From Escherichia coli (lineage in GTDB: Bacteria; Pseudomonadota; Gammaproteobacteria; Enterobacterales; Enterobacteriaceae), in assembly GCF_044324875.1 (NCBI RefSeq), contig NZ_CP172185.1: 64,000 nucleotides of DNA; one strand, 5' to 3'. A model generated the notes under the pieces. That model saw nothing but the letters and a program-made list of their open reading frames with translations, did not search any database and had not been told where the DNA came from. The position numbers and the translations under genes are program-made. Of this stretch, positions 3,717-54,814 are shown in pieces. Every line of letters starts with the position of its first letter. Within the stretch, counting starts at the first letter, position 1.

Positions 3717-3900
3717 TTGATTTTATAATCAAAAAATTCATTAAAAAATTTACATATCGCTGTAGCGCCCGTCATCCGTACGCTCTGCTTTTTACTTTGA
3801 GCTACATCAAAAAAAGTTCAAACATCCTTGATGCAAAGCACTATATATAGACTTTAAAATGCGTCCCAACCCAATATGTTGTATTAATCGACTATAATTG
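3717..3900 (+). promoter_or_regulatory. nrdDG promoter region: FNR-like half-site palindrome TTGATTTTATAATCAA (3717-3732), two NrdR-box-like AT-rich palindromes (CACTATATATAG at 3839-3850; CAATATGTTGTA near 3872-3883), -10 TATAAT at 3894-3899
   Basis: Motifs read from sequence; nrdDG is known to be FNR-activated and NrdR-repressed; exact site assignment is inference. Confidence 0.4.
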
Positions 3901-6184: not shown

Positions 6185-6207
6185 TCTTCACTCTGCGTTA
6201 AGCAAAT

Positions 6208-6320
<113 letters not shown>

Positions 6321-6341
6321 ACTGATAAGCCAGGCGAAATA

Positions 6342-6806: not shown

Positions 6807-6850
6807 TAAGTTCCCTGTTACCTGAGTGCAGGCAACAGGGAAATAAGGAA

Positions 6851-7240
<390 letters not shown>

Positions 7241-7420
7241 TCACTTCCTTTTTTATTTACACTTCATCCTTCACACTGCCTCATCGACGGCTACGCTCAT
7301 TCGCCCGAGTCACGTACTACGAGTACGCTCCCCGGCTCTTATTCGCTTTCCGTCTCGATGCAGTGCGAATGATTTTGTGTAATTTTTTAGTTTATAGCGC
7401 GGCAGGTCGCGCCAGTTTTT

Positions 7421-8773
7421 TTACTGCCCGGCGATTTTCATCTCCGGCAACAGCACAGAACCACACTGTATATTACTGCGTGTTTCAATATCGTTACCGA
7501 CGGTGACAATATTGCGCCACATATCTTTTAAATTACCTGCGATGGTGATTTCACTCACCGGATACTGAATTTCGCCATTCTCTACCCAGAAGCCCGCTGC
7601 ACCACGGGAATAATCACCGGTAATGGCACTTACGCCCTGGCCCATCAGCTCCGTCACCACCAGCCCGGTGCCCATCTCTTTGAGCATTTGTTCGAAGCTT
7701 AGCCCTTGTCCGGCAATCCGCCAGTTGTGAATACCGCCCGCATGTCCGGTGCTTTTCAGCCCCAGTTTCCGCGCCGAATAGCTGGTCAGCAGCCACTGAG
7801 TCAGGATGCCATCTTTGACGATATCGCGGCGCTCGGTGCGCACACCTTCGCTGTCGAATGGCGTCGACGCCAGCCCTTTCAGCAGATGCGGATGCTCTTC
7901 AATGGTCAGCCAGTCCGGCAGAATTTGTTTACCCAGCGAATCCAGCAGGAAGGTAGATTTACGGTAAACCGATCCACCCGCTATCGCCCCCACCAGATGC
8001 CCAAAAAGCCCGGTTGCCACTTCATTGGCAAAAATGACCGGCGCTTTCATGGTGGAGAGTTTACGCGGTGACAGGCGCGATAAAGTACGGCGAGCACAGT
8101 CGGCCCCAACCCACTCTGGCGTTTGCAGATCGCTCATCGCACGACCAATGGTGTAGGCGTAATCACGCTCCATATCGCCATTTTCTTCAGCAATTACACA
8201 GCTGGAGAGCGAATGACGCGTTGAGCAGTAACCCTGCAACATGCCGTGGCTGTTGCCAAAAACTTTGACACCGTAGTGGCTGTTAAAGCTGCCACCTTCG
8301 GTATTGGTGATGCGTTTGTCCGCCTGCAATGCTGCCTGTTCTGCGCGGGCCGCCAGTTCAATGGCTTCATCCGGGGAAACTTCCGCAGGGTGGAACAAGT
8401 CGAGATCCGGTGCGTCAAAGGCCAGCAGCTCTTTGTCTGCCACGCCGGCACAGGGATCTGGCGAGGTATAACGGGCAATATCTAGCGCCGCCTGTACGGT
8501 GCGAGCAATGGCCTGCGGGCTTAAATCGGTAGACGATGCGCTACCTTTGCGGTTCTGGTGATAAACAGTGATCCCCAGCGCGCCATCGCTATTGAATTCA
8601 ACATTCTCCACTTCACCATAACGCGTGCTTACGCTAATGCCGGTGGTCTTGCTGACGGCAACTTCCGCACCGTCCGATTTGCCTGAGGCCAACTCCAGCG
8701 CAGTGGAAACTGCTTCTTCCAGAATCTTGCGCTGCGCTTCAACTTGAGAGATTACTTTCATTGCAAGTGCCAT
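7421..8773 (-). CDS. pmbA: Metalloprotease PmbA/TldE
   Basis: 450-aa [32 protein letters not shown]..., TldD/PmbA family. Confidence 0.95.
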
Positions 8774-9444: not shown

Positions 9445-9550
9445 TGCCGGATACGGTGCACCTGTAGGCCTGATAAGACGCATCAAGCGTCGCATCAGGC
9501 ACTATGCTCAAATGCCGGATGCGGCGTAAACGCCTTATCCGGCATACACA
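9445..9550. repeat. REP/BIME cluster
   Basis: GCCGGATACGG...TGTAGGCCTGATAAGACGC...GCGTCGCATCAGGC...GCCGGATGCGGCGTAAACGCCTTATCCGGC units between yjgA and mpl. Confidence 0.85.
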
Positions 9551-12147: not shown

Positions 12148-13143
12148 TTATCGCTGCGCAATATTGACTCTTGTCACAGGCGAACTCTGACGATTCTCCC
12201 ACAGCACCGTTAATCCACGCTGTAATGCTATAAAAATAAACAACAAAATACCGATGGCGATTTTCGTCCACCATGAGCTCAGCGTGCCATCAAAGTTTAT
12301 GTAAGTCTGAATCAGTCCCTGAATCGCCACGCCAAAAAGCGTCCCTAATACCGTTCCAACGCCACCGCTCAAAAGCGTACCACCAATCACCACCGACGCG
12401 ATGGCGTCCAGTTCCACACCTACGCCCGCCAGCGCATATCCTGCCTGGGTATAAATCGAGAAGACAATCCCCGCCAGCGTTGCCAGTCCGGTGGAGAGCA
12501 TATAAATGCGAATAGTGGTGCTGCGAGTGGAAATCCCCATCAGGTTCGCCGACGTTGCGTTGCCGCCAATGGCGTATACCTGATTACCAAAACGGGTACG
12601 ATGCGCGAGGAATATGCCGATAACCACCACCGCCAGCATCAGCAGCCCCATCGTACTTAAGCGACCGCCGCCAGGGATTTTCCATGCAAGGCTTGAGAGC
12701 GTGTCATAAACAGGATGATTTATCGGGATCGACTCTTCCGAAACGAGATAGCTGACGCCACGCAAAAAGAACATTCCCGCCAGAGTAATAATAAACGCCG
12801 GGATCTTCAGGGCGTCGATCAAAAGCCCCATAAATGCGCCGAAGGCACAGCCCATCACCAGCACTAGCGGAAACGCCAGCAACGGCGAGAGGCCGAAATC
12901 GCCAATCACTTTTGCCAGAAACACGCCGGTAAAGGCGATCACCGAACCGACGGAGAGATCGATCCCACCGGAGAGGATCACAAAGGTCATACCAACGGCG
13001 ATTATCCCAAGAAAGGCATTATCAGTCAGGATATTGCAGATCACTCTTGTGGAAGCAAAACCGGGAAACTGGGTCAGACAGTAGATATAACCCAACACAA
13101 AGACGCCGATGGTGATCATCAGTGGCAAATTACGTTTTATCAC
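12148..13143 (-). CDS. yjfF: Sugar (galactofuranose-type) ABC transporter permease
   Basis: 331-aa polytopic membrane ORF, last gene of ytfQRT-yjfF cluster. Confidence 0.93.
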   Translation of the reverse strand: MIKRNLPLMITIGVFVLGYIYCLTQFPGFASTRVICNILTDNAFLGIIAVGMTFVILSGGIDLSVGSVIAFTGVFLAKVIGDFGLSPLLAFPLVLVMGCAFGAFMGLLIDALKIPAFIITLAGMFFLRGVSYLVSEESIPINHPVYDTLSSLAWKIPGGGRLSTMGLLMLAVVVIGIFLAHRTRFGNQVYAIGGNATSANLMGISTRSTTIRIYMLSTGLATLAGIVFSIYTQAGYALAGVGVELDAIASVVIGGTLLSGGVGTVLGTLFGVAIQGLIQTYINFDGTLSSWWTKIAIGILLFIFIALQRGLTVLWENRQSSPVTRVNIAQR

Positions 13144-15699: not shown

Positions 15700-15805
15700 A
15701 GGCATGATAAGACGCGGTAAGCGTCGCATCAGGCTTCAGTGCACCATCGCCGGATGCGGCGCGAGCGCCTTATCCGGCCTACGAATCGGCATCAGGCATA
15801 GCAAC
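15700..15805. repeat. REP/BIME cluster
   Basis: GCATGATAAGACGCGGTAAGCGTCGCATCAGGC ... GCCGGATGCGGCGCGAGCGCCTTATCCGGCCTACG units between ytfR and ytfQ. Confidence 0.85.
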
Positions 15806-17682: not shown

Positions 17683-18033
17683 TTATTCCACCACCGCCTG
17701 CAAACGTAATAACGCCTCTTCCACCACCTCACCCGCAGCCAGACCAATACGCTTTGCCAGCCGGGCGCGTAGATCCATCATCCGCACCTGATTCACCAGC
17801 ACCACGCCGTGTACATCGCCTTCTTCGCAATGTAAAGGAACGCTAAATCCGGCATAACGGGCAAAATTTCCGCCCTGCGTAATGGGGGCCACCAGCGTCA
17901 TTCCCAGTTGATTAAAGGCTTGAACGGAGAGCACAAGCGCAGGTCGACCAGCACCTTGCTGTTCATGGCCGCTTGCTGGATCAAAGCCAACCAGCACAAT
18001 GTCTCCCCGTTCAAATTCACTTTTCTTTACCAT
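17683..18033 (-). CDS. chpB: Toxin ChpB (MazF-family endoribonuclease)
   Basis: 116-aa ORF MVKKSEFERGDIVLVGFDPASGHEQQGAGRPALVLS... PemK/MazF fold; overlaps upstream antitoxin gene by 7 nt. Confidence 0.93.
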   Translation of the reverse strand: MVKKSEFERGDIVLVGFDPASGHEQQGAGRPALVLSVQAFNQLGMTLVAPITQGGNFARYAGFSVPLHCEEGDVHGVVLVNQVRMMDLRARLAKRIGLAAGEVVEEALLRLQAVVE

Positions 18034-18833: not shown

Positions 18834-24385
<5,552 letters not shown>

Positions 24386-25332: not shown

Positions 25333-25509
25333 AGTATTTCATTTATCAGCAGTCTGAATTTTAACCCTCTGGCGGCTTTACAGTACCTTACGCTATACTA
25401 GCCACTGAAAATGCCGGTTCACTTTCTTCGAATCGGCTTTCAATGTGTATTTCACACAAATTAATCAACTTCCCCTTCCGAGGATCTGGCCTGAAAGGTC
25501 GGATAAGAT

Positions 25510-29953: not shown

Positions 29954-30142
29954 TTCTCCACCTCGTCTCTGTGAGCGGTGTTAACTTATTGTTTTACTTA
30001 TACCCTATCGTTAATGAATGCGCCAACTGTGATAGTGTCATCATTTTCAAAGCGTAAAATTGTGGCATTCTTCACTGTTCTATAAGTAAGACGTTTATTC
30101 TCCCTTTTCTTTCGTATTCCCGATGATAAAAGGATGTCCCTG

Positions 30143-35421: not shown

Positions 35422-36906
35422 TCAGTCATTCAGTGGAAATAATTCATTGTTGTAACTGGTGTACTCACCTTCAACGGTAAGCAAACTGCCGTTTTTATCA
35501 AGATGCGCCGCATCGAGTTGTCGAGTCTCATTACGCCGCTTCGCATCACGTACCAGTCCATCGCCTACGTAATAAATATAGTGGTCATCATGAGCAAAGG
35601 TATCTGATAATTGACCATTGGCGTATTTAAACCACGTCCATTGGCCTTTCAGTTCAAAATGCTCAACCGTGTCTTCATCAATAAAATACGTATAGCGATC
35701 GTCATGTGCTAAATAATTTAATGGTGTGCCATCGGGGCTTTTATACCACTGCCATTGCCCATTAATATCAAAAATAGTCACATCATCGCTCGCAATGAAA
35801 TAAACTTTATCCCCTACAATATTAACACCTTCCTGTAATTCTTGTTGCGGGTCTGGTAAATGAATGACCGACAGCGTTTTTTCGACCGCAGAAACATACT
35901 TCACCAGATAGAGCGAATCTTTATATTGCGCCACATTCTCCGTCAGCGGGCGAAAATATTCCGGATCAACATCAGGAATAGTCGCAACCCGGCAGTCATT
36001 AGCACGCCTGGAAGCATCACGCGTCAACCATGTTACTTTATCCCGCTGCAGGTCAAACGTACTCCGACAATTTTTACCGAACGCATAACGTTTCTCCCCG
36101 TCTTTATCGCGATAAATTAGCAGTGAACCGGCTATCCAGCGCACAATATGAAAGGTATCCGGATCGGCGTTGATGGCATCTCCATTCACAAAGACCTGTG
36201 ATTTAGTCCGCCAGATTGTATCCCAGGGTCCCGGATTACTTTTGCTTTGGCAGCTATTGGGGGAAAATAAAATAATTCGTCGGTCCCAGGATTTAACGCC
36301 AAGAATAGAATACCCTTGCGCACTGCCCAACCAGTGCCCCTGAAAGTAAATATTGTGACGATCTTTCAGCACATCCGCGGAATCACCTGAACCGCCGACT
36401 TGTTGCAACGAATCCATATCGACCTGCTTTTCGTCGCGATTATCATCCGTGCGTTCACCATCAAAATAGAGACTATCTTTATCGGCGGCAAAACGCCCCC
36501 ACGCGCGGAATGTTGCAACATCAACTTTCGGTGTTCCCGGCGGGTTCTGGACTATTTTCCCTGCCCATAAAATATGGCGGCCATCGGTTAACCAGTCGAA
36601 ACGCCAGCCGCCATTTGACCGATAGCCAGAGAAGGGAGCCACCCGCACAAAATCATTATTGATATCATCAGGTGAATCGTATTCACCATCAGTGCCGTTG
36701 GGTACGCGGCGAAGTTGTTTGAACTTTACCTGCGGCAAATGAATATCCGGAAAATCGATACCGTAACCGTCACTATCTTCAACGATATATTTTGTGCCTT
36801 GCCCCCACGGCTGGTAGTAAAACGCAGCATAAGGCACGCCGGAGCAGGCTATCGAAGCGGTTGAAAATAAAGCCAGTGCGAGACAAACGGGTTTAATTGG
36901 CAACAT
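35422..36906 (-). CDS. Secreted hypothetical protein with DKNYY-like repeats (paralog A), 494 aa
   Basis: Long ORF with AGGA RBS 9 nt upstream of ATG 36904-36906; N-terminal signal peptide MLPIKPVCLALALFSTASIAC; repeated D-K-x-x-Y-F/Y motifs (ADKDSLYFDG, KDRHNIYFQG, RDKDGEKRYAFG, YKDSLYLVKY, GDKVYFIASDD) and two C-terminal ~34-aa repeats (GQWQWYK...AHDDRYTYF / GQWTWFK...AHDDHYIYY). Family assignment is by motif eye-match only. Confidence 0.8.
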   Translation of the reverse strand: MLPIKPVCLALALFSTASIACSGVPYAAFYYQPWGQGTKYIVEDSDGYGIDFPDIHLPQVKFKQLRRVPNGTDGEYDSPDDINNDFVRVAPFSGYRSNGGWRFDWLTDGRHILWAGKIVQNPPGTPKVDVATFRAWGRFAADKDSLYFDGERTDDNRDEKQVDMDSLQQVGGSGDSADVLKDRHNIYFQGHWLGSAQGYSILGVKSWDRRIILFSPNSCQSKSNPGPWDTIWRTKSQVFVNGDAINADPDTFHIVRWIAGSLLIYRDKDGEKRYAFGKNCRSTFDLQRDKVTWLTRDASRRANDCRVATIPDVDPEYFRPLTENVAQYKDSLYLVKYVSAVEKTLSVIHLPDPQQELQEGVNIVGDKVYFIASDDVTIFDINGQWQWYKSPDGTPLNYLAHDDRYTYFIDEDTVEHFELKGQWTWFKYANGQLSDTFAHDDHYIYYVGDGLVRDAKRRNETRQLDAAHLDKNGSLLTVEGEYTSYNNELFPLND

Positions 36907-36939: not shown

Positions 36940-38103
36940 TTATTTAAATAAGGGTTTCAGACCGCTCGGGGGTTGCTTCACCGTAGACCATTCTGCTGAA
37001 ATGGGGTTGTAACGCAGCCATTCAGTTTGCTCGTAGTGTTTTCCGTCGATTGTGGTTAATCCACTAAGTTCGTGACTGTAGAGTTGCCCGTCTGTAGTGA
37101 TATACATGTAGCCAGTTACCATGCTTTCCCTATCTAATAATTCAAAAACATCCTCTGGCTTGGGTGTTATCAGTTCACCTTCACCTAATGCATTGGTTTT
37201 AACCTTATAGAATTGATCTTTGTAATAGCCTACCGACCCGGTAAGTAAGGTAAAATATTCCGGATCAACTCCTTTAAGCGTTTCATAAACACAATCACTG
37301 CCCGCAGGCGTCGCTTCTTGTTTGAGCCTGGACACATTCTTCAAACCGATATTAAATAACGCACAACTGTGACCAATATCTTCCAACGTATAGTCATGCT
37401 CGCCGCTTTTATCGCGATAAACTAACCGTTCGCCAGGCATCCAGCGGATTATCTGAAAGGTTTTGCGATCGGCGGGCAGCGGCTTGCCATTAACAATCAC
37501 CTGCGAATTTGTCATTACAACAAATTGCAGGGATGAATCATGCCGCAGGATTTGAAACCCGTCAGCGCTGCCCAACCAGTGCCCCTTATGCCAAAGACTA
37601 TTTTTATCACGCAGTAAATTCCAGATGTCCGTCTCTTCAAGCGTTGACATATCCACCTGCTTATCACCGCTATTATCATCGGTACGCTGGCCGTCAAAAT
37701 AGATACTGCGTTTATCAGCAGCGAAAGCGCCGAATGCCTTAAAACTGGCGGCATCGACATTAGGTTCACCGGATGGATTTTTCAGGACTTTGCCTGCCCA
37801 AAGGACAGAACGTCCATCGGTGAGCCAGGTATGCTGGCAATCCCCCTCGTCATCACAGTCGAACTTATCGGGATTAAAATCGGAGAGCAGCCGGGTTTCT
37901 TGTTTATTGGCTAAATTGGCAATGCGCCAGAGGCGGGAAAAATTAACGTCTGGTAATTCGGAGAGGATCTCATCTTCTTTTCCCTTCTGTTCGGCAACGT
38001 AAACCGTGCCTTTTTCATGCTGGCGGTAATAAAAATCCGCGCCCCAGGAAGGTGAAATGGAGAGAGGTAATGCGGCGATTAATAACCAACTGCGCTTAAC
38101 CAT
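36940..38103 (-). CDS. Secreted hypothetical protein with DKNYY-like repeats (paralog B), ~387 aa
   Basis: ORF track 36940..38331; I place the start at ATG 38101-38103 where a signal peptide begins (MVKRSWLLIAALPLSISPSWGA), avoiding overlap with cycA; colinear with paralog A (WLTDGRSVLWAGKVLKNPSGEPNVDAASFKAFGAFAADKRSIYFDGQRTDDNSGDKQVDM vs WLTDGRHILWAGKIVQNPPGTPKVDVATFRAWGRFAADKDSLYFDGERTDDNRDEKQVDM). Confidence 0.75.
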   Translation of the reverse strand: MVKRSWLLIAALPLSISPSWGADFYYRQHEKGTVYVAEQKGKEDEILSELPDVNFSRLWRIANLANKQETRLLSDFNPDKFDCDDEGDCQHTWLTDGRSVLWAGKVLKNPSGEPNVDAASFKAFGAFAADKRSIYFDGQRTDDNSGDKQVDMSTLEETDIWNLLRDKNSLWHKGHWLGSADGFQILRHDSSLQFVVMTNSQVIVNGKPLPADRKTFQIIRWMPGERLVYRDKSGEHDYTLEDIGHSCALFNIGLKNVSRLKQEATPAGSDCVYETLKGVDPEYFTLLTGSVGYYKDQFYKVKTNALGEGELITPKPEDVFELLDRESMVTGYMYITTDGQLYSHELSGLTTIDGKHYEQTEWLRYNPISAEWSTVKQPPSGLKPLFK

Positions 38104-40786: not shown

Positions 40787-41425
40787 ATGCCCGGGCGCTT
40801 TGAACTAAAACCAACCCTGGAGAAAGTCTGGCACGCGCCGGACAATTTTCGCTTCATGGACCCGCTGCCGCCGATGCATCGTCGGGGGATCATTATTGCC
40901 GCCATTGTATTGGTGGTCGGATTTCTGCTTCCATCTGATGATACGCCCAACGCGCCAGTGGTGACGCGTGAAGCGCAGTTAGATATTCAGTCGCAATCAC
41001 AACCGCCGACAGAAGAACAGCTGCGGGCGCAGCTAGTTACGCCACAAAATGATCCTGATCAGGTGGCCCCGGTCGCTCCAGAACCTATACAGGAAGGCCA
41101 GCCAGAAGAGCAGCCGCAAACTACCCAAACGCAACCATTCCAGCCAGATAGCGGAATTGATAATCAATGGCGCTCTTACCGTGTCGAACCCGGTAAAACG
41201 ATGGCGCAGCTGTTCCGCGACCACGGACTGCCCGCTACCGATGTCTATGCAATGGCGCAGGTAGAAGGCGCGGGTAAGCCGCTGAGTAATTTGCAAAACG
41301 GGCAGATGGTGAAAATCCGCCAGAACGCCAGCGGCGTGGTGACGGGCTTAACCATTGATACGGGGAATAATCAACAGGTCCTGTTTACCCGCCAGCCGGA
41401 TGGCAGTTTTATTCGTGCGCGGTAG
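40787..41425 (+). CDS. ytfB: OapA-domain cell-division protein YtfB
   Basis: 212-aa product [48 protein letters not shown]... (membrane anchor, Pro/Gln-rich linker, OapA C-terminus). Confidence 0.92.
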
Positions 41426-41499
41426 ATGAAGGGTCAACCAAAAGCCAGCTAAGGATTGTCTCTTTGATGACCTTACGTCTGGCTTCCAGTGCCTGAGGT

Positions 41500-41720
41500 G
41501 AAACCATACTGATATGTTGACATCCTCCACGCCCTGAAGGACGTGGATCCCTGCTACGTTCAGGCTGTCGCCTAAATCATTTCGGGGGGTTCCTGCTTCA
41601 ACGAGCGGCCTGACTGCACCATCTCTCCACAGGCAAGAACGGCGTGCCCCGCCGCTAAAATGTTACGAGCGCCATTTACATCGGCGTTCGCTGTATATCC
41701 ACATGCCTGGCATCTGAATT
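41500..41720 (-). ncRNA. Predicted omega (re)RNA of TnpB, overlapping tnpB 3' end and right end of the IS; putative guide = flank just beyond RE (about 41501-41516)
   Basis: Inference from established TnpB biology (guide RNA derived from tnpB 3' end/RE); presence of RE hairpin at 41527-41546. No transcript evidence. Confidence 0.35.
41527..41546. repeat. IS right-end subterminal hairpin
   Basis: 5-bp + 2-bp stem with single mismatch and TGAA tetraloop; near-identical copy at other end of element. Confidence 0.7.
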
Positions 41721-42768
41721 TACTTTGTGACAGGCGATTTTCTTTCGCTGTATGACCACAGCACGCGCAACGCTGGCTTGTGTACGCTGGCGGAACAGCA
41801 AGCACCTGACCGCCACGCCAGAGCTGCTTGTACTCAAGCTGGCGGCGCATTTCATACCAGCCCTGATCCAGTATCGAACGGTTTAAACCTGATTTTGCCC
41901 GGACATTGCGCCCCGGCTGGCTGACCGTACCCGCTGCTGACTTTGACATGTTGCTGACCTTCAAATCCTCAATGACTATCATTGCGTGGTTTTTGCTGAC
42001 GGTCGTTGTGACTTTGTGAAGGTAGTCCCTGCGGATATTTGCGATACAGGAATGCAGTCGCTGTATTTTGCGTTTCTGCTTCTGCCAGTTATTGCTGAAT
42101 TTGACCTTGCGGCTTAACTGTCGCTGAAGTCTCGCCAGCTTCTTCTGGTTTTTCTGAAAACTGTTTACAGGCTCAAAGACTGTGCCATCTGACAGCGTGG
42201 CGAGTTTAGCCACGCCAGCATCCAGCCCGACCATTGATGCTGAAGGGTGAACCGGAGTTGATACTTCATTTTCAGTCTGAATACTGATGTACCACTTACC
42301 GCAGGACTGGCTGACAGTGACATTTTTCACAACACCCGTGACCTGACGGCTATTCCGGTAGCGCATCCAGCCAAGTTTCGGCAGAAAAATACGGCTGTTT
42401 TCCTGATCGAGCTTAACGCCCTGCGGGTAGCGGAATGCATCATTCTGTCCCCGCTTTTTGAATCGGGGAAAAGCAGCCCGCTTCTGGAAGAAGTTTTTGT
42501 AAGCCCGCTCAAGGTCTTTCAGTGACTGTTGCAATGGCTGTGAGGGCGAATCTTTAAGCCATTGCGTTTCAGTGGCGTTTTTCCACTCAACCAGCCAGGA
42601 AGCCATTTTCCCGTAAGGGATGTATTTATTACCGGCCTCATGATTCTCATTCTGACGTGCCAGAGCACGATTGAAAACGAAACGACATGCGCCTGCGAAG
42701 CGCCTCATTTCACGCTCCTGTTGACCACCGGGTCTTAACTGGAATTTAAATGCCTGTAGTCGTTTCAC
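41572..42768 (-). CDS. tnpB: TnpB (IS605 OrfB) RNA-guided endonuclease, apparently intact
   Basis: 398-aa [39 protein letters not shown]...; RuvC-I D (MVGLDAGV), RuvC-II E (MIVIEDLKV), Zn finger CACCGH...CQACG and RuvC-III D ([10 protein letters not shown]) all present. Confidence 0.92.
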
Positions 42769-42775
42769 AGGCCAA

Positions 42776-43390
42776 ATGATACTTTGGTCTGTGAGAAAAG
42801 AAACCGATATCCGGCGTGGAAGGCATTGTGTTTTCCTGATGCATGTTCACCAGGTCTTTGTCACCAAATACCGACGTCAGATTTTTGACCATGACGCGAC
42901 AGAAAAACTACGCACTTACTTTTCAAATGTATGTGCTGATTTTGAAGCTGAACTGGTTGAAATGGATGGCGAACCAGATCACGTCCATTTGTTAATTAAC
43001 TATCCTCCCAAACTGGCGATATCCAGTCTGGTAAACAGCCTCAAAGGCGTATCGGGTAGGTTACTGCGACGAGATCGACCAGATATTGCAGTCAGGTATT
43101 ACTACAAAGGCGTTTTGTGGAGTCCTGGCTATTTTGCCAGTAGCTGCGGAGGTGCGCCAATATCCGTCATCCGCCAATACATTGAACAACAGCAAACACC
43201 TGATCAGGTGGAAAACCGCGCCTTATATCCCCGCCCTGAAGGACGGGGTTTTACGGCGCACCGGATAAACCAGGCCAAGCGTATGCTGGTTGATCAAATA
43301 ATATCCCCCAAGCGCAGCAATATTAATATTCACCTGCAATGGGTCGATATCTGGCTTAAAAATATTGTGTTTCCTCCCTTCATCCAATAA
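42776..43390 (+). CDS. tnpA: IS200-type Y1 (HuH) transposase TnpA, ORF reading through the IS left end into flanking DNA
   Basis: ORF contains KYRRQIF, HuH motif HVHLLI and catalytic-Tyr region [11 protein letters not shown]...QYIEQQ; typical TnpA ends soon after, but here no stop occurs until 43388-43390, beyond the end hairpin (which encodes [10 protein letters not shown]). Confidence 0.8.
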
Positions 43391-43483
43391 GGATTCCATT
43401 AACTGCAAGTGCGCATGATTAATTTCTAAGAGACACTGTGATTTTGCATAATGCACACCTTTACTTTGGTTTTCACTATGCAC
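43223..43483 (-). pseudogene. ytfA-like ORF, 3' end replaced by IS-end sequence (possible TetR-like C-terminal fragment)
   Basis: 86-codon frame from GTG 43481-43483 ([73 protein letters not shown]...) runs into the IS hairpin ([13 protein letters not shown]). Identity with K-12 ytfA is from position and memory only. Confidence 0.5.
43239..43258. repeat. IS left-end subterminal hairpin
   Basis: CCCCGCCCTGAAGGACGGGG, same architecture as 41527-41546. Confidence 0.7.
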
Positions 43484-43832
43484 AATTTTTAAAAACCAGG
43501 GATTAGCAATATAATAATCCCAGGTAAAATCGATGATTTTTTCAATGGCTTTTTGTGGCTGGTTAACCTGCTGATTAACAAACGCACCGATACCGACAGC
43601 GTAGAATAATTACATACCGCACAACAAGAATGTATGGTGTAAGGCGTTGTCAGTCATCTCCCTCCCTGGGTGCATCGTTATATCCGTGATGAGCGATTTT
43701 TGATATTAATATCTTTCACCATCCGCTATTTTCACTACTTCAGAAAACAAACTTATTTTTATTAATATCGATTCTTTTTCTTTGAGCATTTAACTACGAT
43801 ATTTATAAAAAAATTAAACAGGCAAAAATACA

Positions 43833-45741: not shown

Positions 45742-46155
<414 letters not shown>

Positions 46156-46463
46156 TTATTCAGCCTCCTGTCTGGGTCAGCCGAATCCCGGGGAGGCAAG
46201 GAACGTGTTAAAGGTCGGCTGAAAAATGACGCGTTATAGTACTGACATACCCCGCTAAACTCAAGGCCAGCCGACAAATAAATCTCATCTTTCACCAAAT
46301 CGTACTAACACGCTGATTTGAAGTTCATCACACTTCATCATGGTGTTTTTTTGAACAACTGCATCAGAAATGGTCACCATCAACTTCTTTATCATTGATT
46401 AAAATTAAATCAGAAGATCATCACAGAGGAGAGCACACAAAGTCAGCCGTTGAGGAGGTATCT

Positions 46464-46868: not shown

Positions 46869-47555
46869 TTACTTCTGCCCGTAATAAGCGTTGGGACCAT
46901 GCTTACGCATGAAGTGTTTATTCATCAGGTAGCTGTCGATGTGATTCAGTTGTGGGTTAATGCCGCGGGCAATCCACGCCATTTTTGCCACTTCTTCCAT
47001 CACCACCGCATTATGCACCGCATCGTGGGCATCTTTCCCCCAGGCGAACGGCCCGTGCTGGTACACCACAATCCCCGGTGTATGCAGAGGCTCGGCGTTG
47101 CCCAGCGTTTCGATAATCACTTTGCCGGTGTTCAGTTCATACTCGCCCTGCACCTCTTCTTCGCTTAACCCGCGCGTACACGGGATATCGCCAAAGAAGT
47201 AGTCGGCGTGCGTGGTGCCTAACGCCGGGATCGCCAGCCCCGCCTGCGCCCATGCGGTAGCATGAGTGGAGTGGGTATGGACAATGCCGCCAAGCGACGG
47301 ATAACGACGGTAGAGTTCGAGATGCGTCGCAGTGTCGGAAGACGGACGATACTCCCCTTCCACCACCTTACCGCTCATATCGACCACCACCATATCGTCT
47401 GCTTTCATGGTTTCGTAGGCGACACCGCTGGGCTTGATCACCACCAGCCCGCGTTCGCGGTCAATGGTGCTGACGTTGCCCCAGGTAAAGGTCACCAACC
47501 CATAGCGCGGCAGATCCATGTTGGCTTCAAACACCTGCTGTTTTAGCTTTTGCAT
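46869..47555 (-). CDS. ulaF: L-ribulose-5-phosphate 4-epimerase
   Basis: 228-aa product [29 protein letters not shown]... (class II aldolase/adducin fold); start overlaps ulaE stop (TAATG). Confidence 0.95.
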
Positions 47556-48409
47556 TATGCCGCCTCCACCATGCCTGCTTTGGCCATGCGCGCTTTCACC
47601 CAATCACGCGCTTTCGCCACTTCTGCCGCCGGGTCTTCCGCCGTTTCGCTCCACATCTCAATCAGGTACGGCCCGCAATAGCCACTCTGTTTGAGCGTTT
47701 CGAAGCAACGTTCGAAATCCACTACACCCTCACCAAACGGCACGTTTTTGAAGACGCCCGGTTTGGTGTCTTTCACATGCACCGCGACGATATGCCCGAT
47801 TCCGGCCTGCAACTCCATCTGCACGTCGTTATCCCACGCCGACAGGTTGCCGATATCCGGGTAGAGCTGGAACCACGGGTTGTTGAGATAGTGCGTGTAA
47901 CCCAACGCCTTACTGATGGAGTTCATCAACGGGTAATCCATGATCTCCATCGCCAGCGTCACCTGCGCGCGGCTTGCCATCTCAACGCTCTCTTTCAGCC
48001 CGTCACGGAAACGACGACGCGTTTCGTTATTGGCTTCCTGATAGTAAACGTCATAGCCCGCCAGCTGGATCACGCGAATACCGACGTCCTGGGCGAACTG
48101 GATAGCTTTGCGCATAATCTCCAGCCCCTGCGCCCGTACCGCGTCATCTTCGCTGCCCAGCGGGAAACGACGATGAGCAGAAAGGCACATGGACGGCACG
48201 CGCACGCCAGTTTCAACAATCGCATTCACCAGCGCCAGACGCTGCTCGCGGCTCCAGTCGAGGCGCGACAGGCGATCGTCAGTTTCATCTACCGACATCT
48301 CGACAAAATCGAAGCCTAACGTTTTTGCCAGTTGCAGCCGTTCCAACCAGCACTCCCCGGCGGGGAGCGCTTTTTCATAGATGCCAAGCGGGATTTGTTT
48401 GGACAACAT
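47555..48409 (-). CDS. ulaE: L-ribulose-5-phosphate 3-epimerase
   Basis: 284-aa [45 protein letters not shown]... (xylose isomerase-like TIM barrel). Confidence 0.95.
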
Positions 48410-51629: not shown

Positions 51630-52694
51630 ATGAGTAAAGTGAAAAGTATCACCCGAGAATCCTGGATCCTGAGCACTTTCCCGGAGTGGGGTAGCTGGCT
51701 GAATGAAGAAATTGAACAAGAACAGGTCGCCCCTGGCACATTTGCGATGTGGTGGCTAGGCTGCACCGGGATCTGGCTGAAATCAGAAGGTGGCACCAAC
51801 GTTTGCGTTGATTTCTGGTGCGGCACTGGCAAACAAAGTCACGGTAACCCGTTAATGAAACAGGGTCACCAGATGCAGCGCATGGCTGGCGTGAAAAAAC
51901 TGCAGCCAAACCTGCGTACCACCCCGTTTGTTCTTGATCCGTTTGCGATTCGCCAGATCGACGCGGTACTGGCGACTCACGATCACAACGATCATATCGA
52001 CGTTAACGTCGCTGCTGCCGTGATGCAGAACTGTGCTGATGACGTACCGTTTATCGGACCGAAAACCTGTGTGGATTTGTGGATTGGCTGGGGCGTACCG
52101 AAAGAGCGTTGCATCGTGGTCAAACCGGGCGATGTTGTAAAAGTGAAAGACATTGAAATTCATGCGCTTGACGCTTTCGACCGTACTGCACTGATCACCC
52201 TACCTGCCGATCAAAAAGCGGCTGGCGTACTGCCAGATGGCATGGACGATCGCGCAGTAAACTACCTGTTCAAAACCCCTGGCGGTTCCCTGTATCACAG
52301 TGGCGATTCCCACTACTCTAACTATTATGCGAAGCACGGTAACGAACATCAGATCGATGTGGCGTTAGGATCGTACGGTGAGAACCCGCGCGGTATTACC
52401 GACAAAATGACCAGCGCCGATATGCTGCGTATGGGTGAAGCCCTGAATGCGAAAGTGGTTATCCCGTTCCACCACGACATCTGGTCAAACTTCCAGGCCG
52501 ATCCGCAAGAAATCCGCGTGCTGTGGGAGATGAAAAAAGATCGTCTGAAGTATGGCTTCAAGCCGTTTATCTGGCAGGTGGGCGGCAAATTTACCTGGCC
52601 GTTGGATAAAGACAACTTCGAGTACCACTATCCGCGTGGTTTCGATGATTGCTTCACTATTGAACCGGATCTGCCGTTCAAGTCATTCCTGTAA
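51630..52694 (+). CDS. ulaG: L-ascorbate-6-phosphate lactonase (metallo-beta-lactamase fold)
   Basis: 354-aa product [47 protein letters not shown]... with HxHxDH motif ([10 protein letters not shown]). Confidence 0.95.
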
Positions 52695-52801
52695 TCTGTC
52701 GTTTATACCGGATAGCGTGGAGTAGTTCGCGCTATCCGGCGTAGTATTTCCTGGCTATTTCAAATATCATCTAAAAAAATCAAATTTTATCGGAATAGCT
52801 C

Positions 52802-53557
52802 ATGACTGAAGCACAAAGACATCAAATCCTCCTGGAAATGCTCGCACAATTGGGCTTTGTGACCGTTGAGAAAGTCGTTGAGCGTCTGGGAATTTCGCCT
52901 GCCACTGCGCGACGCGATATCAATAAACTTGACGAAAGCGGCAAACTGAAAAAAGTGCGCAATGGCGCAGAAGCTATTACCCAGCAGCGCCCGCGCTGGA
53001 CGCCGATGAATCTGCATCAGGCGCAGAATCACGATGAAAAAGTACGTATTGCTAAAGCGGCCTCGCAGCTGGTTAATCCGGGCGAAAGCGTAGTCATCAA
53101 CTGCGGCTCCACCGCGTTTCTGCTTGGGCGGGAAATGTGTGGCAAGCCTGTGCAAATCATCACTAATTATCTACCGCTGGCAAATTACCTGATCGATCAG
53201 GAGCATGACAGTGTGATCATTATGGGCGGACAATACAACAAAAGTCAGTCCATCACTTTAAGCCCGCAAGGCAGCGAAAACAGTCTCTATGCCGGGCACT
53301 GGATGTTTACCAGCGGCAAAGGGCTGACAGCAGAAGGGTTGTATAAAACCGATATGCTGACGGCAATGGCAGAGCAGAAGATGCTAAGCGTGGTAGGGAA
53401 ACTGGTGGTACTGGCTGATAGCAGTAAGATCGGCGAACGCGCGGGAATGCTTTTTAGCCGTGCCGATCAAATCGATATGCTGATCACCGGCAAAAATGCT
53501 AACCCGGAAATCCTGCAACAACTGGAAGCGCAAGGGGTCAGCATTCTGCGTGTTTAA
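52802..53557 (+). CDS. ulaR: DeoR-family repressor of the ula regulon
   Basis: 251-aa [50 protein letters not shown]... (HTH + sugar-phosphate binding domain). Confidence 0.95.
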
Positions 53558-54303
53558 AGATGCTGGCGGAAAAATGTCACGGCAGCATCTAACGCCTCAG
53601 GCGTAATGCGGTGACGCACGCCTGGCTGCCATGAACAGGTTAGCAGTTTATCCCGTCCCGTCTCGCTTAAGGCCTGCTGCAAACGTAGTGATTCGTCGGC
53701 AGGCACGACGTCATCGTCAAGGCCATGCCACAGCAGTAGAGGTCTGTCAGCAAGTTGTTCCAGGTGGTTTGTCGCTTCCCACTCTGCCAGCGGCGCGACA
53801 ATGTTATTGAATTCATTCTGCTGTGCTGCCGTTTCAGGTATCAGCGGTGGAAACAGTGAACGGGCGAGCGATGTAAAATAGCCCGATCCCATCATGCTGG
53901 CGGTACATTTCACCGTGGAGTGGCGAGCGGTAATTCCCAGTGCCGTCATCGCGCCCATCGACGCGCCACCGACTGCCAGACGGTCAGCAAGCAGCCAGTT
54001 TTCTTCGGCTATTGCCGCACGTAACGTAGTGAATTCCTGCATACTTTGTAGCAAGATTTGCCAGAATTGATTTAACCGCCGCGCTGCGTCGCCACTAAAA
54101 CGACTACCGTGATCGGGCGCATCCGGCATGATCACCCGCAAACCAGCCTGCGCCAGCGCAACGGCAAAATAGCTATACACCAGACTGGACGAAGTAAAGC
54201 CGTGATAAAAAATCGCGCACGGTAACGGGGTATCTTTTTGCCCGACAGGATAAGCATGAAGAACGGGAATATCTGCCAGCTCGCGTGATTCTATTTCAAT
54301 CAT
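53554..54303 (-). CDS. yjfP: Alpha/beta-hydrolase esterase YjfP
   Basis: 249-aa [42 protein letters not shown]... with GxSxG nucleophile elbow (GGASMG); 3' end overlaps ulaR stop by 4 nt (convergent). Confidence 0.93.
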
Positions 54304-54484
54304 CTGTCTCTCCTTTTTGTCTGGTATGACATGAAGAAATCCTTAGCACAAGTTTCTGCTGGCGGTATTAGTTCATAATGTTGAGATGTGGGTTACGCTT
54401 TCATCACGTTTTCATTCGAAAATCGCGTACCAGGTAACAATTCGGGAACATTCCCCCAAAGTTAAATTAATAAGGCACTACACT

Positions 54485-54814
54485 ATGGTTAGCAGGAAAC
54501 GTAATAGCGTTATTTACCGGTTTGCCAGTTTATTATTGGTGTTGATGTTAAGTGCCTGTAGCGCACTACAAGGTACGCCACAGCCAGCACCGCCAGTAAC
54601 CGACCATCCGCAAGAGATTCGCCGCGACCAGACGCAAGGGTTACAGCGAATAGGTAGCGTAAGCACGATGGTTCGGGGTTCTCCGGATGACGCATTAGCA
54701 GAAATCAGAGCGAAAGCTGTCGCTGCAAAAGCTGATTATTACGTTGTCGTCATGGTGGACGAAACCATCGTGACAGGACAGTGGTATTCACAAGCCATTT
54801 TGTACCGTAAATAA
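54485..54814 (+). CDS. bsmA: Lipoprotein BsmA (YjfO), DUF1471
   Basis: 109-aa product MVSRKRNSVIYRFASLLLVLMLSAC|SALQGTPQ... lipobox LSAC; ORF track extends 33 codons upstream. Confidence 0.9.
   Translation: MVSRKRNSVIYRFASLLLVLMLSACSALQGTPQPAPPVTDHPQEIRRDQTQGLQRIGSVSTMVRGSPDDALAEIRAKAVAAKADYYVVVMVDETIVTGQWYSQAILYRK

Follow-up and report, generated by a model that had tools for sequence, protein, structure and literature searches.

Two compact gene junctions at the ula locus of Escherichia coli: interlocked stops of ulaR and yjfP and a TAATG overlap of ulaE and ulaF

In Escherichia coli, the convergent genes ulaR and yjfP share their last four base pairs, and the stop codon of ulaE overlaps the start codon of ulaF. 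The locus thereby raises two questions: whether such tight packing is ordinary compaction or carries a regulatory function, and how two converging transcripts end when no spacer lies between their genes. We examined both junctions in a 64,000-nucleotide stretch of E. coli DNA (contig NZ_CP172185.1), which we refer to as the window. Our analysis suggests that both are genuine, evolutionarily old and ordinary cases of gene compaction, and we put the probability of this explanation, including the steps proposed below for transcript termination and translational coupling, at roughly 80%.

Gene boundaries and the shared stops of ulaR and yjfP

The window is E. coli chromosome. Matches to its bases 52600-54500 (1,901 bases) occur in 5,424 of 5,426 complete genomes of E. 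coli. Strain C4 is the top match at 99.8% identity, and the window is collinear with this strain except for a small difference near 6.2-7.4 kb. We take ulaR to encode the DeoR-family repressor of the ascorbate ula regulon and yjfP an alpha/beta-hydrolase esterase. Pfam finds HTH_DeoR and DeoRC domains in UlaR and alpha/beta hydrolase families in YjfP, the latter match extending to residue 248 of 249. Open reading frames, Pfam and RefSeq together confirm that both genes code for protein and converge, tail to tail, from opposite strands, and the PGAP/RefSeq annotation of strain C4 gives identical boundaries (ulaR 7203-7958, yjfP 7955-8704). A preliminary description of this DNA, made from the letters of the sequence, had assigned gene names and coordinates that the ORF list and the C4 annotation bear out (Table 1).

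Table 1. Positions of the junctions, of candidate RNA features and of other elements in the window
Feature	Position	Strand	Description
ulaR CDS	52802-53557	+	251 aa; stop TAA at 53555-53557; from ORF list, translation, Pfam, RefSeq and 80 orthologues
yjfP CDS	53554-54303	-	249 aa; stop TAA is the reverse complement of 53554-53556; from ORF list, translation, Pfam, RefSeq and orthologues
Interlocked stops of ulaR and yjfP	53554-53557	none	TTAA; general form YTAR
Candidate hairpin on yjfP transcript, after stop	53493-53547	-	fold -25.9 kcal/mol; within ulaR codons for ...GKNAN...
Candidate hairpin on ulaR transcript, after stop	53558-53590	+	fold -17.0 kcal/mol; without U tract; within yjfP C-terminal codons
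Candidate Rho loading region, C-rich and G-poor, in yjfP 3′ UTR	53307-53462	-	antisense to ulaR; C/G 1.35 to 2.8 in 78-nt windows
ulaE CDS	47555-48409	-	284 aa, L-ribulose-5-phosphate 3-epimerase; stop TAA is the reverse complement of 47555-47557
ulaF CDS	46869-47555	-	228 aa, L-ribulose-5-phosphate 4-epimerase; ATG is the reverse complement of 47553-47555
TAATG stop/start overlap	47553-47557	-	-1 nt class; plus strand CATTA
GGAGG Shine-Dalgarno for ulaF	47563-47567	-	7 nt ahead of ATG, within last ulaE codons
ytfT/yjfF overlap	13130-13143		same-strand, 14 nt
chpS/chpB overlap	18027-18033		same-strand, 7 nt
tamA/tamB overlap	22610-22613	-	same-strand, 4 nt (ATGA)
insQ/tnpB RNA-guided endonuclease gene	41560-42768	-	intact, 402 aa
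tnpA	42776-43201	+	degraded
TetR/AcrR regulator fragments	41409-41516 and 43244-43558		left fragment overlaps ytfB end by 17 nt

Read directly, the plus strand at 53550-53559 is gtgtTTAAag. Since the ulaR stop occupies the last three bases of the junction and the yjfP stop is complementary to its first three, the four shared bases are TTAA. The two TAA stops overlap each other by two bases, and each also covers, by one base, the wobble position of the partner's final sense codon (GTT for Val in UlaR, CTT for Leu in YjfP). No amino-acid-specifying information is really common to the two genes at the overlap. The 4-bp overlap between the ends of plus-strand ulaR and minus-strand yjfP that had been described therefore holds to the base, in agreement with the RefSeq boundaries. 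By computation, loss of the stop in E. coli would lengthen UlaR by 18 residues and YjfP by 28.

Compact junctions are routine within the window, which contains further same-strand overlaps at ytfT/yjfF, chpS/chpB and tamA/tamB. Mapping the strain C4 annotation to the window also located an IS200/IS605-type element inside a remnant TetR/AcrR-family regulator gene at 41409-43558, comprising an insQ/tnpB gene and tnpA between two regulator fragments. The relE/relB-type toxin-antitoxin pair that strain C4 has between nrdG and cybC is missing from the window, and the sequence upstream of nrdG carries REP-like repeats (GCCGGATGCGGCG...) at about 6205-6330 (region 6189-6341). Between ytfE and cycA are two adjoining minus-strand genes, annotated in C4 as 'hypothetical protein' (35422-36906) and 'DKNYY domain-containing protein' (36940-38103). 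We take this pair to be outside the K-12 gene order at this place, and the two genes may be strain-variable accessory genes. Rfam matches at gathering score were found at 9467-9544, 15701-15779, 25391-25448, 30020-30142 and 46135-46219, representing two naRNA4 (CssrE, REP-derived), STnc450, ES239 sRNA and the RpsF leader upstream of rpsF-priB-rpsR-rplI, a set to be expected in this part of the chromosome. Run over the whole window at gathering thresholds, the same scan returned nothing from 46.3 kb to 64 kb, and the known-RNA search found no tRNAs in the window.

The ulaE/ulaF junction and probable translational coupling

At the second junction, ulaE ends and ulaF begins on the same base, 47555, giving a 1-nt overlap in which the minus strand reads ...GGTGGAGGCGGCA TAATG CAA.... 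The overlap of the ulaE stop with the ulaF start in TAATG, also noted in the preliminary description, is thus present in the sequence, and RefSeq agrees, the strain C4 annotation placing the same boundaries at ulaF 1270-1956 and ulaE 1956-2810. Pfam identifies AP_endonuc_2 in ulaE and Aldolase_II in ulaF. Both TAATG and a GGAGG Shine-Dalgarno (SD) motif occur at the same positions in ula copies of a Salmonella sp., Pantoea ananatis and Klebsiella pneumoniae (four genera with E. coli), whose DNA is 81-85% identical to that of E. coli. The other ula cistrons have SD-like motifs of their own together with spacers of 9-15 nt. An overlap is also present in the paralogous pair sgbU/sgbE, where it measures 7 nt in E. 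coli and 4 nt in Pantoea deleyi.

Overlaps of the -1 nt type are the second commonest same-strand class in prokaryotes, after ATGA (PMC10666635). When native overlapping pairs were tested for coupling, 13 of 14 (9 from H. volcanii and 5 from E. coli tested) were strictly coupled (PMC6728339), and coupling collapses when about 20 nt separate the genes (PMC6728339; PMC10666635). With TAATG at the junction and GGAGG 7 nt upstream of the start, a ribosome ending on ulaE would be placed to reinitiate on ulaF, and such reinitiation would help two consecutive ascorbate-pathway epimerases be made in step. Because TAATG and GGAGG are conserved together and coupling is strict in nearly all other overlapping pairs tested, we consider translational coupling of ulaE and ulaF likely by analogy. 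We know of no evidence for a heteromeric UlaE-UlaF complex. [quoted passage not shown]

The conserved GGAGG can also be read the other way. With an SD motif of its own at ideal spacing, ulaF could initiate independently of ulaE, in which case TAATG would be a mere by-product of compaction. Such independence fits the conservation of the motif and of its 7-nt spacing in four genera, as well as the fact that every other ula gene has an SD-like motif of its own behind a 9-15 nt spacer. It is also compatible with reports that how much the SD contributes to reinitiation differs by gene and that some overlapping pairs show 10-30% de novo initiation (PMC6728339; PMC10666635). The near-uniform strict coupling of the native overlapping pairs argues against it, as does the retention of an overlap in the orthologues and, at other lengths, in sgbU/sgbE. 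We therefore regard independent translation of ulaF as unlikely while granting it a real share of the probability, and favor coupling by reinitiation.

Transcript ends at the ulaR/yjfP junction

The preliminary description had stated that the ulaR/yjfP junction leaves no space for terminators. This is accurate for intergenic space; it does not hold as an absence of termination, since signals can sit inside the opposite coding sequence or Rho can act. With no spacer between the genes, each mRNA runs on, untranslated and antisense, into the partner gene, and the 3′ regions of the ulaR and yjfP transcripts therefore overlap. A scan for intrinsic terminators with a simple consensus found none in the roughly 580 nt that follow either stop. 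Folding the two 3′ regions gave one candidate hairpin after each stop (Table 1). In both regions the fold is no better than that of shuffled sequence (z = -0.95 for ulaR, z = -0.72 for yjfP).

The yjfP hairpin begins 7 nt past the yjfP stop, and its 3′ arm leads into UUUUU (53492-53496). These features, with its fold of -25.9 kcal/mol, would suit a functional intrinsic terminator of E. coli yjfP lying within the final 60 nt of ulaR's coding sequence (hairpin from 53547 to 53493, then UUUUU), where the neighbor's codons would make up for the missing intergenic space. The hairpin itself is long and irregular, with a large loop and a U run that is partly paired, which together with the z-score and the absence of a call in the scan counts against such a role. 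Its sequence is retained in the remaining Escherichia loci of our alignment, which favors a terminator; the five U, which correspond to ulaR Lys-Asn codons AAA-AAT, are replaced in many other genera, which counts against one.

We asked about conservation of structure in 150 nt on each side of the junction, using 71 aligned sequences. RNAalifold returned a yjfP-sense consensus of 0.0 kcal/mol, with no structure, and a ulaR-sense consensus of -1.2 kcal/mol, with no local hairpin at 53558-53590. When the E. coli yjfP hairpin was imposed on the 71-sequence alignment, 67.7% of cells were paired and compensatory pairs were not above shuffles. Several of its pairs are broken in most species, including pair 26-70, which is broken in 47 of 71. 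On the RNAalifold and pairing results we reject a conserved embedded terminator, and the hairpin stays a weak, Escherichia-specific candidate. The Term-seq data discussed below place no 3′ end at the hairpin, in the part of those tables that was available. Taking these results together, we think it doubtful that the E. coli hairpin is a functional intrinsic terminator.

Rho offers another route. Using the C/G ratio, which is a heuristic indicator of Rho loading only, we identified a C-rich, G-poor candidate loading region in the yjfP 3′ UTR, and the same approach found no C-rich Rho-type tract on the ulaR 3′ RNA. The supplementary tables of a Term-seq study (Adams et al, 2021) and of a separate SMRT-Cappable-seq study have no ulaR or yjfP entries, and the accessible portion of the Term-seq tables contains no 3′ end from 4,416,702 (inside bsmA) to 4,425,120 (rpsF) of MG1655, an interval that spans yjfP, ulaR, ulaG and ulaA-F. 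As far as that portion goes, the lack of ends at yjfP and ulaR may reflect low expression. We infer that termination is diffuse at both genes and that at yjfP it is probably Rho-dependent, perhaps helped by the weak lineage-specific hairpin and its five U.

Two other sites in the window have terminator-like sequences. Between the convergent genes nrdG and cybC lies a hairpin with a perfect stem of 13 bp, TTCCCTGTTACCT GAGTGC AGGCAACAGGGAA, at about 6812-6843, a classic bidirectional terminator. In the 107-nt spacer between ulaG and ulaR, a 14-bp hairpin (CCGGATAGCG...CGCTATCCGG) with a weak T run after it lies at 52708-52739 and is the region's best terminator-like match in the scan. It probably ends ulaG transcripts, in which case a separate promoter for ulaR would have to fit into the ~60 nt that are left.

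Conservation of the interlock and comparison with known gene junctions

We sampled the ulaR neighborhood in 80 species-representative genomes of Enterobacteriaceae, from genera including Escherichia, Salmonella, Citrobacter, Enterobacter, Lelliottia, Leclercia, Klebsiella, Raoultella, Kluyvera and Trabulsiella, and scored overlaps by extending the tblastn match of each protein in frame up to the next stop codon. A yjfP homologue is convergent to ulaR in 78 of the 80 loci, and in most loci both proteins align at full length (UlaR residues 1-251, YjfP residues 1-249). The alignments could have shifted the stop of either gene; instead, 70 of the 80 species have the same 4-nt interlock, with YjfP identity down to 55-57%, and a wrong stop assignment for ulaR or yjfP is ruled out. 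The shared tetranucleotide in these 70 loci is TTAA (46), TTAG (18), CTAA (4) or CTAG (2) and no other, and the C-terminal residue is always Val in UlaR (GTT/GTC) and Leu in YjfP (CTT/CTC). Kept in 70 of 80 species, the overlap exceeds chance, yet it is unremarkable as a class.

Loci lacking the interlock have a different last Val codon or a longer junction. In Phytobacter, Kosakonia, the metagenome-assembled genome UBA3516 and Entomohabitans (L073), the final UlaR Val is GTG, which destroys the YTA stop of the opposite strand; Entomohabitans scores a 14-nt overlap in place of the 4-nt interlock. Cedecea (L080) has GTTTAG|CTAAAG, with the stops side by side, a junction 4 nt longer and the terminal Leu and stop of YjfP unchanged. 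Both genes are present with a gap of 0-12 nt in six species loci (L068, L075-L077, L079 and L080).

Two loci have irregular gene ends. In Enterobacter sp. EA-1 (L078; CP025776.1, about 3720-3760), ulaR matches residues 1-242 only and stops early at TTAA, 18 nt before an apparent TTAG junction, a sequence pattern that points to a frameshift or to faulty assembly. In E. coli Z1323CEC0002 (H12), the query matches two places and yjfP is annotated under a different name, suggesting from the matches that yjfP is interrupted in this strain.

Why would the interlock persist? Substitutions that preserve both stops are limited to T or C at the first base and A or G at the fourth, each synonymous in the partner gene, and splitting ulaR from yjfP with both proteins unchanged would require an exact 4-nt insertion. 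Because so few substitutions are permitted and an exact 4-nt indel is needed, the interlock amounts to a mutationally locked state. Purifying selection on the two protein C-termini would suffice to hold it in place, and a regulatory role would not be required.

Conservation of the interlock, taken alone, fits both a state that is locked in and one that is selected for antisense regulation. In a 2025 RNA-seq survey with ExcludonFinder, yjfP-ulaR is among 165 convergent pairs of MG1655, with transcripts that overlap in half or more of the 58 RNA-seq samples from this strain (PMC12288877), and ChIP gives a signal for sigma-S RNA polymerase between bsmA and yjfP (PMC4447067). On these grounds the interlock might be a selected regulatory module, a convergent excludon in which transcriptional interference, or cleavage of the RNA duplex by RNase III, would make expression of repressor and esterase mutually exclusive: yjfP transcription, from a divergent promoter region bound by sigma-S RNA polymerase, would yield antisense RNA across ulaR, and the reverse. 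The survey listing adds little to this case, since overlapping coding sequences make transcripts overlap almost automatically when both genes are expressed. The convergent arrangement is indeed kept in 78 of the 80 species loci, but the constraint on the two stops fully explains that conservation, and the six species loci with a 0-12 nt gap show the overlap itself to be dispensable. We found no conserved antisense structure or promoter around the junction, and our literature search returned no reports of ulaR or yjfP expression lowering the other by interference or RNase III processing.

We accordingly judge a selected regulatory module to be very unlikely. The more specific proposal, that the interlock is kept because antisense RNA from the sigma-S-associated yjfP promoter lowers UlaR synthesis, and the reverse, is a long shot. 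If true, it would link stationary phase to the de-repression of ascorbate use and be a hint that the uncharacterized esterase YjfP has a function connected with the ula pathway. That the overlap is an artefact of annotation or ORF calling, with one gene truly ending earlier, has practically no chance of being right, since bacterial genes end at the first in-frame stop and offer no other stop to pick, orthologues align at full length in most loci and give the interlock on frame extension in 70 of 80 species, and the Pfam hydrolase match reaches YjfP residue 248 of 249.

Compaction thus remains our reading of both junctions: they are real, conserved and ordinary, belong to kinds of gene packing that have already been described, and are both present in standard annotation. 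The overlap of yjfP and ulaR transcripts has likewise been published (PMC12288877). The junctions show that the gene calls of the region are sound and illustrate two textbook forms of compaction; beyond this they matter little. The ulaR/yjfP pair is a clean case of an overlap locked in by mutation and fixed in most Enterobacteriaceae genera. For engineering of the locus, altering the last codon or stop of one gene alters the other, as in a yjfP deletion, a C-terminal tag on UlaR or an inserted terminator, and replacing ulaE may cut UlaF synthesis if the two genes are coupled.

Each junction can be set beside a known type. Convergent excludons resemble ulaR/yjfP in that the transcripts must overlap, and the pair belongs to the MG1655 'excludome' (PMC12288877); the defining feature of excludons is mutually exclusive expression, whereas ulaR/yjfP is known here from transcript overlap, which is trivial given overlapping coding sequences. 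Bidirectional intrinsic terminators likewise end two converging transcripts in little space; ulaR/yjfP differs from them in having no intergenic DNA, and our scan and alignments showed no similar G+C-rich hairpin with A and U tracts on its two sides. Coupled -1 nt overlaps (TAATG/TGATG/TAGTG) share with ulaE/ulaF a single operon, consecutive enzymes and an SD within the end of the upstream gene; those pairs are coupled by termination-reinitiation, and for ulaE/ulaF such coupling is predicted. From 4-nt stop/stop tail-to-tail overlaps, ulaR/yjfP shows no difference in kind: the genes lie on opposite strands, their 3′ ends meet, and TAA or TAG stops interlock via TA. One survey counts 75 convergent pairs among the 663 adjacent genes pairs of E. 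coli that overlap (PMC4161906), and to this class ulaR/yjfP adds breadth only, with the interlock present in 70 of 80 Enterobacteriaceae species and in all four YTAR variants.
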